Positions 1 through 63,140 of a stretch of 64,000 bases of DNA are shown here, in pieces. The notes under the pieces were generated by a model. That model was not told where the DNA came from and did no database searches. It saw only the letters and a list, made by a program, of their open reading frames with translations. Made by a program: the position numbers and the translations under genes. Source of the DNA: Bilabrum cf. latius (Eukaryota); NCBI GenBank assembly GCA_965178125.1, contig OZ237775.1, positions 496,001 to 560,000 on the forward strand, read 5' to 3'. Position 1 is the first letter of the stretch. Each line of letters begins with the position of its first letter.

Positions 1-3000
1 ACCTTCCATGGCCATGGGGGAGGGCCATGGCCATGGCGGTGCGCTCTGTGGCGATGGGCCGGGGACGGGGCAGGGGCAGGGGCTGGGACTGGCCAGCATG
101 GTCAGGGGCCCCGGCTTGGATGGCTGCAGCGATGACCCTGCACTGCAGGGGCTGGGTAAAGACGGGAGTGCGGACGACTCGCTGGCGATGGGGTGGTCAA
201 AGTGGGAGTCGGACGGGATCCGATGGCGCTGCGACTCTGGCACGGATGGAAATCGAAACGAGGCTGTGGTTTGGGCCCATGGGGCAGAGGCTGCTTTACC
301 CAAAGGATAGCACGGCATTGCTGGTGGTCTGAAGGGGCCGCAGTCCCCGGTTCCACTCCGCGTAATTGACGGATGGGATGGGGAGGATGCAGGCAGCGCC
401 ATTGGGTGGAGCACTGTGCAGCACGATGCCTTTCTCGCCCGCGGCTATGGCAATGTGTTTGCCTCCGCGGGACTCGACGATACGCTGCACCTGTGGGATG
501 CCAGGGCGAGCACTAAGCCGGTTGCAACTGCCGCGGGCGTGCACGGCGGTGAAGCCGTGGCGGTGGCCTGGTCGGCTCTGGACCCTGCCCTTGTAGCGAC
601 GGGGGGTTCTGACGGCGCCGTGCGGTTGTTCGACGTGCGGTGCATGGGAGCACATGCCGGCGGGAGTGGCAGCGGTGGTGGGAACATTGGTGTGACGAGT
701 GAGTGGGGCTTGGGTGCGATCCGGATGGCGGGCAAGCAGCCGCTGCTTGCGGAGCTGAGGTACCACTTGTCTGACGCACTCTGCGTGGAGTTTTCGTGCG
801 CCGCTAGCGGCGTGCTGCTGTCAGCAGGAGCTGATGGCGTCGTGGTGCAATGGGACCTTGCGCAAGGGGATGCAGCGCGAGCTGCTGTGGTCGGTAGGGG
901 CATGGCAACAGATGGGAATCGCATAGGTGTGGAGGACGAAGATCGGCTCGGGGCGGGCTGTGGCAGCGGTCGCGAAGACGGCACTTTTCCTGTAGGTTCC
1001 GCAGATGTGCAGCCCGGCATTGCACCGTCTGCTGGGGACAGGGAGACCTCCCGGCTGGCGGCAGCCCCGTCTTCATTCTCATCGTCATCGGCTCCAGTAC
1101 CGGCTCCAGCATCGGGGAAGGAAGCAGCAGCACTGCCAGTGTCATCAGCCAGCAGCGACCAAGCTGCAGAGCCGGAGATGGAGCCGCGGTGCCTGCTAGC
1201 TGGGGCTGCTAGGCACGCTGCTGTTCGTATCACGCTAGATGCGTGGCGCCAAGATCTCCCAAAGAAACCGAAGGTATAGGAAGGGGCTGTGGCAGTGCCG
1301 ACTCCTCCGGGTGGCGATGGGCCCGTCGAGCCAAGCCCTGCAGCCTAGGCTCAGTCTGCAAACCAAGCAGCGATGGATACAGATGGGGATTTGCCACCAA
1401 CCCGTAGCAGCTGGATCGGTGGCGGCACGGGTGTCCGGCTTGGCCGCGCAGCAGCTGGCGGGCCAGCCGAGGGCGTGAAAATCGAAAAGGTACAGAAGGG
1501 TAGCGGTGCAGATGATAGACGTGATGACGAGTGGGCCCACCCGGATCCCTGGCCCGCAAAGCTACCCGCAGAGGCACAGGTGGTGCACAGGGGCCACAGG
1601 TCCACCTCGCTGGTGGATCTGGTGCTGGCGCGAGATTCGGCCGACCCCTGGCTGGTGGCCACCATGTCAGATGACGGCAGCAATCCACGCATTCGGGGCG
1701 GTGCCACGCTGCAGCTGTGGAGGCCCAGTGACCTGGTGACTGGCCCCTCCAGAAGCCGCATCGCAGAGCTCGAGGCAAAGCTTGGGAGGGCTCGTGAGCG
1801 AGAAGCGGGGCGCTCTGGAAGCAACGGCCGCGGTGACCATGCAGCCCCGTCTGAATAGATGTAGGAGCCTAGCGCTGAGCAGTCGAAGGGTGTGGGCATG
1901 AGCAAGAGCACGGGGGGCAGCAAGGCCTCGCTGTGCTCCCTGTCTGGCAGCCAGACCAATCCGGCGTCGGCCAAGACAGGTAGGGCTGGTGTCGAATCCT
2001 CTGGGTCCTCCAGCAGTTGCAGCAAGCTCGTCGGACGACAGAGACGACGCCAGCGGCAGAAAACCGCTCGTGCGGACCAAGTTGACATGGTAGGCAGCGA
2101 CAGCGGAAGCGATGCCTGGAGCGATTCGGACAGCGACGGCAGCTCGAGCGAGATCGTGGAGGCTCTCGATGCTTCGAGCATCAGCGGCACTGCATCTGGG
2201 CTCGAACGGCTAGTGCGGCAGTGGGTCAAGAATCCAACCGGCAAAGCGAGTACTGTTGGCAAGGATCTACTAGCCGGAATACCCAGCGGAGTGGCCCGGG
2301 CTTTGGAGGCTGCAGGGGTGCTGCAGCAAGGACCCGAAGGGTACTGCCGACCAGCGGGCGACTCGTCCCACTCCACGGGTGCATTGTCGGAAGGCTCCTC
2401 CGATTCGCTAGTCCTCACGGACTCCGAGGGGGAGACCGGGCCCACGGCTGGCGCCGCTCGAGCGGCTGCGAAGCCGAGTAGCGGTAGCACGAGGGGCAGT
2501 GCAGTGCAGTCCAGCAGCGGTCCGAAGTCGAAACAGCCGCAGAAGGCCAAACAAGCGCGAAAGGCTCCAGTAGCCAAAGCAACTGGGAAACCAAAGGCTA
2601 AAAGCAAAGGCAAGATCGCGCCTCGATCCAATGGAGAGTCGAGCAAGCGACCGGCCAATGGAAAGCAGAGCAGGGTTTCATCCAGCAAGAGCAGAAAACC
2701 GAGCAGCGGTGCAATCAGCAAGCAACTCAAGTCGGTCAGTGCTGCTTCTGCAGACTCGCCGCGATCGCAAGGCACGGCCAAGTCATCCAGCAGCCCCCGT
2801 GCGAGCAGCAGGAGCAGAGCCAGTTCCGCTAGATCTACCAGCTCGGACACAGGCACCAAGGTGCACGCCAGCAGGTCTAGATCGAGGCAGGGCGCTGTGG
2901 CTGCTGCAGGCTCCGATCGCCAAGCATCGAAGCGTAGCCGCAGCAGCGGTCGTGCTGGGCCAACATCTGCTGGCACGGGCGCTGAGAAGATGGGCGTGAA

Positions 3001-3874
3001 GGGCATGTCAGCTGCTTCGGCAGCCGTGACTGCCTCGCCAAAGAAACCTCAAGCACAGCTATCGTCAGCCTCCTCGTCTTCTCCACGCACGTTTGCATCG
3101 TCCTTATCGTCGTCGGGATCTGCTGCCTCCCCACAGCCAGCATCTGTCGGCGGGAAGCCTCCCAAGGTTCCGGGGCGCACACAGGCTGCCGGTAGGTCCA
3201 AAGCAGCGTCTGCTGCAGTTGAAACGGTGGACCTGGTTGATGACAAACCGGAACCGCGCGCACCTGGAGAGCTCTCTCTCGATGGCTGGATAGTGCCAGC
3301 GGAACAACAGGCTGGCAAGAAGCGATCCAGAGCAGAGAGCCTAGCGTCAGCTGGTGAAACGCAGCAGCAAGGTTCTGAGTCAAGCTCGCCGTCCGGAGCC
3401 AAGGCGAAAAAGCAGCGCCTAGCCGAGGGTGTTATCCAGAGCTCTCCTGCTGGAAGCGCAAGGAGCGCGCCGGCTGGTAGTGTGTCTTCACAGTCTAGCC
3501 CGGGCTGGGCAAGGCAGGATGCCGCTTCGCCTGCAACTTTTGGCCATGGCAGGCGGGCTCGAAAGCTGTCAGCTCGAGCGGCAGAGACGTGGGACCCGCA
3601 GGCCCAGGGGATCGCGATGGCGCAGTCAAGCAGCGCGCGAGCTACTTCGGTTGAGAAAGCCGGTTCGAGCCCATGGGTGGAGGGCGTGAGAGAGTACGTC
3701 GTGATCGGAAGCAGTCCGCTTGGGGGAAGGAGGGGGCATACGGGCGGTGACATGGAAGGGCTGTTGGACCAGTCTGGGGGGGAAGCTGGGGACGCGGTAG
3801 GGGTAGTGGGTGCTGGAGGGATCGGCGGGGGCGGTGTGAAGGTGAGGCTCCGGGCAGTAAGGAAAGTTAAGTAA
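1..3874 (+). CDS. WD40-repeat histone chaperone (RBBP4/MSI family, MSI4-like) with long low-complexity C-terminal tail; 5' end lies outside the window
   Basis: ORFs 8..310, 416..1279, 1373..1858 and 1892..3874 share one frame and are joined only through TAG codons (308, 1277, 1346, 1856, 1862); true stop TAA 3872-3874. WD motifs FASAGLDDTLHLWD, VATGGSDGAVRLFD, LLSAGADGVVVQWD; MSI-like C-terminal blade HRGHR...DPWLVATMSDD...GGATLQLWR. Confidence 0.7.
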
Positions 3875-4251
3875 ACTAGGCTGGATGATATCCGGCATCC
3901 GGGAATGGGACCCTTGCGGATCCTAGGGATACATGAGCCCATTTCTGCCAAGGCGTTGGTCAATCCGCACACCTCACCCGATGCTCCAAGATCCAGACTA
4001 TCAGAAGTGGCAGCTTTGTGTGCCTTCATCCTCTAGGATCCGGATCCAGGATGGTTTGATCAAAAGAGAGTTGTACCAGTAGACTATCCGGATCCGGGAC
4101 AGCAGCCGAACATTAAAATGCAGCTTCACACAAAATCATATTGGATCGGGCAATTCTCGCTTAGCTCAAATATTTGATTGCCAAACATATAAAGGGCTTC
4201 CCACCAGCTTGAAGCCGCTCCTCCCGACCACAACGTCCTGATGACCACCGT

Positions 4252-61655: not shown

Positions 61656-62052
61656 CTTTACAGGAAAAATCCCCTCGAAGACAGTTAAATGCGGGACCTC
61701 CAGAACTGCAGCAAGCAATAATGTGTTTTGTCTTCATCTTGATGCCGTGCATTTCGGTTGCAACCGCAGTTCAGACTTGTCCAGAATTTGCAGGCCCTGT
61801 ACAAGTGCGTCATACTATACAACGTTCGTGTGATGTAGCACATGTAGCGCTGGCATGTATTTATGGTTGAATGTACTGAGAGCTTGAACATGGAATCTGG
61901 TGTGGGGGCCGAGGCAAGGACATCACACGACAAGTGCGCAATCGCCCAGAGGTGCCGTCACGGCAAGGTAACCAGGCAATCGTCCCAGGCCGCCAAGCGC
62001 CTCGCTTGTCACTCCAGCCCCCGCTATGGCCCCACCCTGCCTGCCAGCGTCC

Positions 62053-63140
62053 TCATACAGCGTACTTCTTGGTGTACTGCCTTGCCATCTCGTCATACTT
62101 GGCCTTGTCGGATTTGTACAGATGAGCCAGACTGAGTGGGGGGAGTCAGCAAGGAAGCGACAGGGAAGTTAGTTGCTGAGCTCGCGCAAGAGACTCAGGC
62201 AAGGCTTCGAATCCAAATCAGGCTACCATGTTCACTCACTCTGGCACCAACGGCTGCGGAGGCAAAGGGGGGTCGAAGATAATCACCGAGGAGAGGAATG
62301 GGGACGCAAAGTACGATTGTGATCCACTGTGTAGTGTTGGGCATGAGCTGCCATTGCCTCACGTCACTCGGGTTCGGGTCCGTGAGCAAAGACGAGATAC
62401 TCAGCAACACCTTGCTAATTGTCAGGGCCGGCGACCATTGGTCCTTCAAAATGTCCAAACTGCATCATAAGTATGCTAGACGAAGGGATTAAGCATGAGG
62501 CGCCGCTACAACACATCGATGCGGTGAATACTACCAGCGTACGCGCTCACCAAATCGCTCCACGGTCATTGATGTTGACGTGATAGATCCTTGTGGTGAA
62601 CTGAACCTTGGGCGGCTTAAATGGGTAGTCTGAAGGGAACTTGATGCTCAAGTGAAAAACCCCGCCATCATCTGCGCGAGAGAGAAACTGAACAAACCCA
62701 GCGTAGCCGTCATCGAGTGCCATGGGTGGCCGGCACGCGAGCGAACAAGTAGACTGGCTCACATGGAGAATCCTTCGGTCCCATTATTGTGGCTGCATGG
62801 AAAGGGTTGAACAACTGGTTCGGTGAGAGCTAAGCGCAAGGCAACACGGTATGCGCCGTCGATGGCAATGCATGGCACGTCGCTACATGTGAAAATCAGC
62901 ATCTCCCTTCGTCCAATAATCAACATGCATGATGTATTCAAGCGATTCGCAGTGCCTGACGCAGCATCAGGCCGCAAGCTAGCAGCGTTCTCTGGGACTA
63001 TTGCAATTCGAACGAGCATTGCAATTGGCTGGCTCACCCTGCCACGCAAACAGATCATCACCGGTGGGGCCGGCCGAAATATTGCTAGGAGGATCACGGC
63101 TAATTTCCTTCAACTCCTTGGAGATTCTCTTGACCGACAT
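62053..63140 (-). CDS. UBC4: Ubiquitin-conjugating enzyme E2, Ubc4/5 (UBE2D) family
   Basis: Six exons (63140-63038, 62792-62763, 62671-62551, 62459-62363, 62253-62240, 62131-62053) give 147 aa: [63 protein letters not shown]. Stop TGA. Confidence 0.93.

Follow-up and report, generated by a model that had tools for sequence, protein, structure and literature searches.

The window, which is the whole 64,000-nucleotide stretch of DNA analysed here, carries 20 genes and belongs to a genome with a GC content of about 62%. The genes are given below with coordinates and strand (+ or -) and end in TGA unless stated otherwise. At the left end of the window lies the gene of a WD40-repeat protein (2-3874, +; Pfam WD40/beta-propeller), whose 5' end is cut by the window edge; it contains five TAG and ends in TAA at 3872-3874. 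It is followed by a Xaa-Pro dipeptidase-like gene (PEPD; 4252-6033, -; Pfam Peptidase_M24 and AMP_N) without TAG, and by a coiled-coil open reading frame of 664 codons (6303-8297, +; no family) with six. The receptor-like gene of 2952 codons (8406-17264, -) encodes three Peripla_BP_6 domains, an Ephrin_rec_like domain, and a membrane region; 15 TAG are present in its frame together with no TAA or TGA, and its orthologues are the fragments P0300-P0302 and the metagenome contig L001. The alpha/beta hydrolase gene (18263-19852, +; Pfam) contains two TAG, and four in-frame TAA are positioned immediately upstream of its open reading frame. Six TAG are located in the open reading frame of a gene with FYVE and synaptobrevin domains (20175-25994, -; Pfam), and five in a 1520-codon open reading frame assigned to no family (25604-30166, +).

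The Na/Pi cotransporter gene (NaPi; 31021-32439, +; Pfam) has four TAG, including that at 31687 in the motif LVxSS. The gene of branched-chain keto-acid dehydrogenase E1 beta (BCKDHB; 32970-33962, +; PDB alignment) has TAG at 33225 and 33621. An HMG-CoA lyase-like gene (HMGCL; 37197-38390, -; Pfam HMGL-like) with five TAG precedes that of a kinesin with a C-terminal chromo domain (38785-42501, -; Pfam and PDB), which has 11 TAG and ends in TAA at 38785-38787. The dihydrolipoyl transacylase gene (DBT-like; 43545-45140, -; Pfam and PDB) contains one TAG (45009-45011) and an intron at 44837-44941, which is supported by a joint and by transcript pieces in the runs X5, X6, and X7. A joint-supported intron (45889-45980) also interrupts the gene of a DnaJ protein with a J domain, Zn finger, and C-terminal domain (45598-47168, +; Pfam and PDB), which has two TAG. 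The TPR-containing gene (47590-51687, +) has nine TAG, including those at 47644 and 47650; its introns at 47785-47912 and 48207-48291 are supported by joints and, in X7, by a spliced contig of 3992 bases.

In the right part of the window, a BTB_2-domain gene (51817-53250, -; Pfam) has three TAG, two of them adjacent, and three joint-supported introns (52702-52799, 52884-52979, and 53038-53135). All five TAG of a 420-codon open reading frame without a family (53734-54996, -) lie within transcript pieces of X5 and X7. The NOB1 gene (PIN domain and Zn ribbon; 55138-57620, +; Pfam) has a joint-supported intron at 55519-55613 and ends in TAA at 57618-57620; seven of its ten TAG are inside a repeat, (GGGCTA)n, that translates to (Gly-Gln)n. 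The mitochondrial carrier gene (57611-58691, -; Pfam) has a TAG at 58581-58583, within a segment of 10 protein letters, and a TGA at 57816-57818; a poly-T loose end at 57611 marks the end of its transcript. The gene of the vesicle-fusing ATPase NSF (59041-61655, -; PDB and 120 homologues) has three exonic TAG (61327, 61114, and 60925) and an intron at 61370-61485, supported by a joint and transcript pieces. The last gene, which is ubiquitin-conjugating-enzyme-like (UBC; 62053-63140, -; 147 codons), has no TAG; joints support its four introns as well as a micro-exon of 14 bases (62240-62253), and the spliced frame ends ...KKYAV followed by TGA at 62053-62055.

Eight of these TAG, those at 31687, 33225, 33621, 47644, 47650, 45009, 58581, and 61114, had been cited in a sequence-only reading of the window, and each is TAG on the strand named there. 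The terminators that it listed are also correct: TGA for PEPD, BCKDHB, DBT, the carrier, and, after splicing, UBC, and TAA for NOB1 and the kinesin. Its gene identities agree with Pfam for the genes that were run, except that the TPR-containing gene had been called a methyltransferase, a label that Pfam does not confirm: the first exons match no family and the third matches TPR alone; the UBC label was given by eye.

TAG inside genes and termination at TAA and TGA

Under the standard code, the longest stop-to-stop open reading frame in the window has 1360 residues. Reading through TAG produces open reading frames of 2952, 1939, 1520, 1290, 1238, and 1154 residues, whereas reading through TAA leaves the lengths almost unaltered. 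In 18 open reading frame segments with 15,724 codons, there are 81 in-frame TAG, compared with 102 expected from the background triplet frequency, and no TAA or TGA, of which 56 and 185 would be expected from composition; the two zero counts are partly circular, because the segments were chosen as free of TAA and TGA. Independent of this definition, the open reading frames cover entire conserved proteins, inside which TAG is not depleted. Eight genes spliced at RNA-supported introns comprise 4,998 codons with 34 TAG, no TAA, and no TGA. The usage of TAG, 5.2 per 1000 codons or 12.5% of Gln-type codons, is like that of any rare sense codon. The pattern of TAG is far beyond chance. Because the open reading frames lengthen only when TAG is read through, and because they contain TAG together with no TAA or TGA, TAG is a sense codon.

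TAA and TGA are the terminators. The 20 gene ends comprise 17 TGA, three TAA, and no TAG, although a sample of only 20 genes is compatible with occasional termination at TAG. Many conserved genes ending in TAG would have contradicted the sequence-only reading, and the window contains none. It is improbable that UAG is ambiguous in the manner of Condylostoma or Blastocrithidia, encoding mostly Gln and terminating in some contexts. Such a dual role could be accommodated near the ends of DnaJ, HMGCL, and the kinesin, where the stop follows TAG at a distance of 4, 10, and 12 codons, respectively, and the true C-terminus is indeterminable from homology. However, no gene needs a TAG terminator, as every open reading frame reaches TGA or TAA, and the TGA of BCKDHB and NaPi coincides with the C-terminus of the human chain and of the relative P0121, respectively. 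Furthermore, the base following TAG is distributed like that following CAG, and TAG is scattered along the genes with no depletion toward their ends.

Marginally less probable is code 6, in which both UAA and UAG encode Gln, TGA is the sole stop, and TAA is scarce owing to the high GC content. TAA is the rarest stop triplet in the whole window (453, versus 834 TAG and 1509 TGA), and the frame past the terminal TAA is free of TGA for 100 codons in the WD40 gene and for 23 codons in NOB1, as code 6 would allow. By contrast, a usage of TAA relative to TAG that followed the CAA/CAG ratio (0.22) would put about 18 TAA into the 15,724 codons that have none, and contig L001 lacks TAA as well as TGA in 1,750 codons that include nine TAG. 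TAA is concentrated just outside coding regions. Among 48 TGA-delimited frames that contain TAA, none has a TAA between two coding stretches, and in the recognised gene frames TAA is always in a UTR, in an intron, or past the gene end. The 1238 codons of the kinesin contain no TAA; after the terminal TAA, there are five in the next 100 codons and six in frame before the next TGA. The GC content falls past each TAA terminator as it does past TGA terminators, for example, from 0.66 to 0.50 in the WD40 gene.

Amino acid at TAG and evidence from transcripts

Gln is the commonest residue at nine of 17 TAG-aligned sites, and the log-odds summed over these sites are +25.4 bits for Gln and -16.1 bits for the runner-up, Met. 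Q occurs in 129 of 144 representatives, and among 133 letters, in the column of the carrier TAG, and the two sister repeats of the carrier have CAG at the matching position. At two of the NSF sites, the 120 homologues have Q 60/R 36 and Q 85/L 21/M 11, and all four of the closest relatives covering these sites have Q. The BCKDHB TAG at 33225 is opposite Q in both human 1dtw_B and 1um9_B, and that at 33621 is opposite Q in 1dtw_B and V in 1um9_B. The LVxSS site of NaPi is Q in seven of ten homologues, and P0121, which is 92% identical to NaPi, has Q, Q, Q, and L at the four TAG. The remaining eight sites are in the kinesin (V/I), DnaJ (S/E), DBT (K/E/R), NSF site 1 (G/M/S), NaPi (R/K, A/V, and L/I), and position 881 of the receptor (E). 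They are all variable columns, yet they add no support for Gln. The earlier statement that many TAG occupy conserved Gln positions is fair when quantified as nine of the 17 sites.

In the orthologues of the receptor-like gene, TAG sites correspond to E, Q, and Q in P0300, to Q and Q in P0301, and to Q in P0302; a 95% relative has Glu opposite one TAG site. Eleven well-aligned sites shared with L001 comprise one TAG/TAG, seven TAG/CAG, two TAG/Arg, and one TAG/Val pair. Because homologue columns favour Gln and TAG swaps with CAG between orthologues, TAG is assigned to Gln. It is highly improbable that TAG encodes Glu, Leu, Arg, Lys, Tyr, or Ser instead. Single sites do suggest E (receptor 881 in P0300, and DBT in the PDB alignment with the human protein), L (NaPi site 4), or R (receptor 2071 in L001); however, every other residue is at least 41 bits behind Gln, the carrier column is nearly uniform, and CAG is the partner in seven of the ten TAG/non-TAG pairs.

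Contigs from X5, X6, and X7 contain 13 joints, bounded by GT..AG or CT..AC, that are absent from the DNA run X1; the types of X5-X7 are guesses, X7 being flagged 'probably DNA', and the contigs are taken to be cDNA on account of these joints and of a single poly-T end. These transcript-like contigs match 22 of the 34 TAG of the spliced genes, all unchanged as TAG and not the CAG that would have spoken against the sequence-only reading. No alternative letters or indels were reported over the 20 kb compared. Since spliced transcript-like contigs keep TAG, editing and assembly error are excluded. The probability of an artefact is negligible, be it an error of assembly or consensus, the presence of pseudogenes, or a return to CAG by U-to-C RNA editing: no point supporting it was found, the sequence is identical in four runs from three studies, decaying pseudogenes would not bar TAA and TGA yet retain 81 TAG, and the independent metagenome contig has the same pattern.

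Placement and proposed mechanism

The NSF protein forms a clade with Cafeteria roenbergensis with 100/100 support in a single-gene tree. Cafeteria is a bicosoecid stramenopile. On the basis of this one protein, the organism is probably a stramenopile close to bicosoecids, in agreement with the earlier view that it belongs to neither the ciliates nor the fornicates. The window very probably represents nuclear DNA from a eukaryote with a GC-rich genome and few introns, presumably this bicosoecid-near stramenopile, in which UAG encodes Gln and UAA and UGA terminate. The sequence-only reading had proposed the same code, and homologue columns, orthologue codon pairs, terminators, the distribution of TAA, and transcript contigs agree on it. 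L001 indicates that the code is common to at least one related uncultured lineage; fragment P0301 stops exactly at a CAG position of the receptor-like gene of the window. UAG may be decoded by a tRNA-Gln with the anticodon CUA, one base change from the CUG isoacceptor, and eRF1 would have lost recognition of UAG while keeping that of UAA and UGA. The window contains no tRNA gene.

Comparison with known codes

The codon assignments are the same as those of NCBI table 15. A literature search covering the main full text of openly accessible journals found no nuclear code variant for stramenopiles, and to that extent supports the earlier description of the reassignment as undescribed. The code type is known and the lineage seems new: the two 'TAR' stops are seldom separated in this way, and no published report of such a separation was found for this lineage.

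The fornicate Iotanema spirale likewise reads UAG alone as Gln and keeps UAA as a stop (PMC5304391, PMC11687900). However, it is an unrelated anaerobic metamonad, whereas the NSF of the window organism groups with a stramenopile, and the window is GC-rich with TGA, not TAA, as its main terminator. The ciliates Hartmannula sinica, Trochilia petrani, and Protocruzia tuzeti use the assignments of table 15, based on the same type of evidence, with TAG spread like other Gln codons and never a terminator (PMC11687900). In these species, UAA terminates 93.5-100% of the aligned C-termini (PMC11687900). By contrast, the window is mainly TGA-terminated, its genes are long and GC-rich with spliceosomal GT..AG introns, and by the NSF tree the organism is not a ciliate.

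Code 6, with UAR as Gln, is used by many ciliates, Hexamita, ulvophycean green algae, Streblomastix, and Amoeboaphelidium protococcarum (PMC11687900, PMC5304391, PMC6299283). It shares with the window the change from stop to Gln, presumably via a mutated tRNA-Gln, but there TAA is a sense codon, whereas the window has no in-frame TAA and three genes that end in it. UAG is uncoupled from UAA, as it is here, in the rhizarian exLh and TARA ciliate metagenome-assembled genomes (Leu) and in Scotinosphaera (Ser) (PMC11687900); however, the amino acid differs, and in the window Gln far outscores both Leu and Ser. The ambiguous codes of Condylostoma, karyorelicts, and Blastocrithidia resemble that of the window in having standard stops in frame, but no gene of the window requires TAG for termination, and two codons are retained as dedicated stops.

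TAG codons within the reading frames

The 64-kb window has a G+C content of approximately 62% and contains 20 recognised protein-coding genes on both strands. Pfam and PDB matches name a WD40 protein, an Xaa-Pro dipeptidase, a receptor of 2,952 codons, an alpha/beta hydrolase, a FYVE/synaptobrevin protein, a Na/Pi cotransporter (NaPi), the BCKDH E1-beta chain (BCKDHB), HMG-CoA lyase (HMGCL), a kinesin with a chromo domain, a DBT-like transacylase, DnaJ, a TPR protein, a BTB_2 protein, NOB1, a mitochondrial carrier, and NSF. A UBC-like gene carries a family label assigned by eye only, and three long ORFs are without any family. 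No tRNA genes were detected in the window by ARAGORN, and there were no matches to Rfam families at the gathering thresholds. The gene for eRF1 lies outside the window.

Under the standard code, the longest stop-to-stop ORF reaches 1,360 amino acids at most. Reading through TAG yields ORFs of 2,952, 1,939, 1,520, 1,290, 1,238, and 1,154 amino acids, and reading through TAA leaves the lengths almost unchanged. The 15,724 codons of 18 ORF segments include 81 TAG, no TAA, and no TGA, with the two zeros partly built into the definition of the ORFs, whereas 102 TAG, 56 TAA, and 185 TGA are expected from background triplet frequencies. Therefore, TAG is not avoided in coding frames, from which TAA and TGA are excluded. 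Independently of the ORF definition, the frames cover whole conserved proteins, and the density of TAG is close to background. The eight in-frame TAG codons cited by the sequence-only reading are all present on the strands it assigned to them, and the terminators that it named are as it described.

The amino acid encoded by TAG was determined from homologues of queries in which TAG had been translated as X. The TAG of the mitochondrial carrier (57611-58691, minus strand) occupies the last position of a ten-residue motif. After six of 150 representatives longer than 500 residues had been left out, this column contains Q in 129 of 144 sequences, with gaps in 11 and different letters in four; both sister repeats within the gene have CAG at the matching position, as had been proposed. 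Among 120 NSF homologues, one TAG column contains 60 Q, 36 R, and 24 gaps, and a second contains 85 Q, 21 L, 11 M, one V, and two gaps. Both of these informative columns have Q in all four of the closest relatives that cover the sites, and also in Blastocystis. The human enzyme has Q opposite both TAG codons of BCKDHB; the enzyme of Thermus has Q opposite the first and V opposite the second. The LVxSS column of NaPi contains Q in seven of ten sequences and H in three, and the database protein P0121, which is 92% identical to NaPi in the alignment, has Q, Q, Q, and L at its four TAG positions. At the TAG sites of the receptor, three fragments of orthologues from the databases have E, Q, and Q (P0300, 95% identity), Q and Q (P0301, 78%), and Q (P0302, 72%).

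Other TAG codons fall in variable columns: GMGxLH, the third site of NSF (G/M/S/A/N), TPVxH of the kinesin (V/I), LSDxKKR of DnaJ (S/E), and VEVMxVF of DBT (E/K/R). In log-odds summed over 17 TAG sites, Q scores +25.4 bits and the next residue -16.1 bits, and Q is the commonest letter at nine of the sites, with ties at two of the nine. The columns aligned to TAG are thus enriched for glutamine, the amino acid that the sequence-only reading had proposed for UAG.

Termination and the presence of TAG in transcripts

The terminators of the 20 genes are TGA in 17 cases and TAA in three (the WD40 protein, the kinesin, and NOB1). The retention of UAA and UGA as stops, which formed the other part of the proposal, is upheld as well, for UAA on the scale of the window and one further contig (L001, below). 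The stop of BCKDHB is at the same position as the end of the human chain, the C-terminal residues of NaPi are the same as those of P0121, and the UBC-like gene ends with KKYAV followed by TGA. The alignment of NOB1 to its PDB match ends at the Zn ribbon, short of the C-terminus, and has no bearing on the TAA stop.

It is conceivable that UAG, besides being a sense codon, acts as an occasional or context-dependent terminator, because a TAG is positioned 4-12 codons ahead of the assigned stop in DnaJ, HMGCL, and the kinesin. However, none of the 20 genes in the window ends at TAG, although the sample is small; furthermore, TAG codons are spread along the genes, and the base after TAG is distributed as it is after CAG. 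Such dual use of UAG, if it occurs, would be rare.

A code in which UAA and UAG both specify glutamine (NCBI table 6) is rejected for the window. The ratio of CAA to CAG is 0.22, and those of other A/G pairs are 0.16-0.27. If TAA were a synonym of TAG at the CAA/CAG ratio, approximately 18 in-frame TAA would be expected, and none is observed. There are 48 TGA-delimited frames of at least 250 codons that contain a TAA; in the frames of recognised genes it is always outside the coding part. For example, four TAA shortly precede the hydrolase ORF, an intron of the TPR gene contains one, and six follow the stop of the kinesin. Past each of the three TAA terminators, the G+C content decreases (0.66 to 0.50, 0.59 to 0.50, and 0.70 to 0.60), and TGA terminators are followed by a similar decrease. 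The lack of in-frame TAA, its clustering in UTRs and introns and its placement at the ends of three genes, and the decrease in G+C content therefore speak against table 6 in the window.

All sampled words of an 8-kb stretch (window positions 55300-63300) are present in four sequencing runs. Runs X5, X6, and X7, which come from two other studies and carry other coded organism labels, contain 72-75% of the sampled words; their kinds are guesses, no run with this sequence is recorded as RNA, and X7 is marked 'probably DNA'. Contigs from X5-X7 aligned to positions 43400-63399 have 15 listed joints, 13 of which span gaps of 85-245 bases bounded by GT..AG or CT..AC. The DNA run X1 reads through the positions of all these joints and contains none of them. 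At 57611, which is downstream of the carrier stop, one contig from X6 has a loose end of poly-T. From the canonical joints missing from X1 and the poly-T end in X6, we infer that the X5-X7 contigs derive from spliced mRNA. The two remaining joints (45885/46013 and 45891/46017) have non-canonical ends, occur in X5 only, and have sides of 21-22 bases in a Gly/Met-rich repeat; they were discarded as repeat artefacts.

After the removal of supported introns, eight genes comprise 4,998 codons with 34 TAG, no TAA, and no TGA. Twenty-two of the TAG codons are within listed transcript pieces, where they are unchanged rather than CAG; seven of the other 12 are in the skipped NOB1 repeat, and five are in pieces outside the listing. 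No differing letters or indels are reported in the contigs across the 20 kb of 43400-63399. The unchanged TAG codons in spliced transcript-like contigs rule out that the codons are edited to CAG, arise from errors in the consensus, or mark decaying pseudogenes. Small shares of the sequence are also present in runs with the labels 'algae metagenome' and 'protist metagenome', and in those other-labelled runs the organism may be a flagellate introduced by co-culture or contamination.

Gene structures and repeated sequences

The receptor gene (8406-17264, minus strand) is a single exon encoding three tandem Peripla_BP_6/ANF_receptor domains, a cysteine-rich Ephrin_rec_like module, and a multi-pass membrane region. 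The UBC-like gene includes a micro-exon of 14 bases (62240-62253) with AG and GT on either side of it on the coding strand, which appears in X5, X6, and X7 as letters between the two sides of a 231-base joint. Convergent genes are tightly packed at 57611-57620, where the poly-T-tailed end of the carrier transcript (57611) is seven bases from the TAA of NOB1 (57618-57620). A region of approximately 3 kb (34000-37200) has a far lower G+C content (0.47 in the 32-36-kb bin) and lacks long ORFs in all frames, whichever of the two codes is applied.

Several genes contain tandem repeats. Eight copies of a 27-base unit (19049-19265) form a (GSTGPxTGE)n insert within the alpha/beta hydrolase ORF. The FYVE/synaptobrevin gene has five copies of a 60-base unit with 98% identity (19928-20229) spanning its 3' end. 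Every copy corresponds to the last 19 codons of the gene and its TGA, and TAG in some of them is replaced by GAG in others. The sequence (CTGGTG) x 45 (39060-39330) encodes a long (Pro-Ala)n tract in the tail of the kinesin, upstream of the C-terminal chromo domain, which makes for an unusual kinesin architecture. A perfect (GGGCTA) x 7.8 microsatellite (56063-56109) within the coding region of NOB1 is read in frame as repeated GGC TAG, giving a (Gly-Gln)n tract that uses the reassigned codon.

Relatives, placement, and comparison with known codes

A metagenome scan with the database protein P0303 as the query identified 58 loci, two of which (L001 and L049) were checked; the other 56 have 33-47% identity. 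Locus L049 was rejected as a second relative because it is bacterial, and a search of genome contigs with P0300 provided no relatives among 16 pattern matches. Locus L001 is a contig of 5,254 bases with a G+C content of 58.9%, in which one frame of 1,750 codons is open from end to end and contains nine TAG, no TAA, and no TGA; the other five frames have 11-53 TGA each. It encodes an orthologue of the receptor with 67% identity over 1,671 aligned positions. The alignment has 18 rows with TAG on either side, seven of which were set aside, as they are in a low-complexity, unalignable tail with a local identity below 10 of 21. The 11 well-aligned rows comprise one TAG/TAG pair, seven TAG/CAG pairs in both directions, two TAG/Arg pairs, and one TAG/Val pair, so that TAG is exchanged with CAG in seven of the ten pairs with TAG on one side only.

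The receptors of relatives are present in public protein sets only as fragments, of 765 (P0300) and 472 (P0301) out of approximately 2,950 residues. Protein P0301 ends with SRD in the middle of the cysteine-rich domain, exactly where the window has CAG, as would be expected of a standard-code gene caller that meets a TAG. The contigs encoding P0300 and P0301 have room for further parts of the gene, consistent with standard-code gene calling broken off at TAG. Judged from these sequences, the TAG pattern and TAG/CAG exchanges of L001, together with the end of P0301, indicate that the UAG code is a property of a clade and not of one assembly.

Among named sequences, NSF is best matched by those of stramenopiles, namely Cafeteria roenbergensis (54% identity over 84% of the query), Blastocystis, and a diatom. 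In a maximum-likelihood tree of this single gene, calculated from the query and 26 of the 120 matches, the query belongs to a clade of seven rows with 100/100 support that includes C. roenbergensis (P0005), and adjoins the unnamed proteins P0002 and P0003. By this one gene, the organism would belong to the stramenopiles, near Bicosoecida. The NSF genes of P0002 and P0003 have been called uninterrupted, with 738 and 691 residues, which hints that those sister lineages are without in-frame TAG.

The codon usage, residue identities, terminators, and presence in transcripts are shown by the present data; by analogy with other stop-to-Gln codes, UAG would be read by a tRNA-Gln(CUA) that arose from the isoacceptor with CUG, and eRF1 would no longer recognise UAG while still recognising UAA and UGA. 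UAA and UAG are nearly always reassigned together. The few lineages that split them are natural experiments in third-base discrimination by eRF1 and in stop-codon capture, to which a GC-rich, TGA-terminating, intron-containing stramenopile, with relatives both with and without the change, would add an independent case. The organism is present in several sequencing runs, including transcript-like ones, and could therefore serve as a system for studying the discrimination between UAG and UAA by eRF1 where most genes end in TGA. Proteins of the clade, such as P0300 and P0301, appear to have been cut into fragments already by gene callers using the standard code, and the annotation of the assembly should use table 15.

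The sequence-only reading was right about the code, and the observation behind it is real. Regarding its origin, we lean towards a joint reading: UAG would have been reassigned to glutamine independently, without loss of UAA and UGA as stops, in a lineage of GC-rich stramenopiles near the bicosoecids. The resulting code would be the first non-standard one known from stramenopile nuclei, common to a small, partly uncultured clade (a 92-95% protein-identical relative and the L001 lineage at 67-78%), with the standard code kept by Cafeteria and by the P0002 and P0003 sister lineages, whose NSF genes are intact. A full-text literature search, with supplements, subscription journals, and very recent genome notes outside its range, returned no nuclear code variant in stramenopiles, and its sole bicosoecid match was a mitochondrial genome. 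Provisionally, the lineage with the UAG code is undescribed.

Several groups are described as reading both UAA and UAG as glutamine (PMC11687900, PMC5304391, PMC6299283). They include the aphelid Amoeboaphelidium (PMC6299283, PMC5304391), unlike which the window does not use TAA as a sense codon; an aphelid affinity was dropped for this reason and because NSF groups with stramenopiles. According to PMC11687900, UAG alone has been reassigned to leucine in a rhizarian and in ciliate MAGs from TARA, to serine in Scotinosphaera, and to glutamine in Iotanema spirale, Protocruzia tuzeti, and two lineages of phyllopharyngean ciliates. The type of code found in the window, with the assignments of NCBI table 15, is already known, and the lineage that uses it appears to be new.
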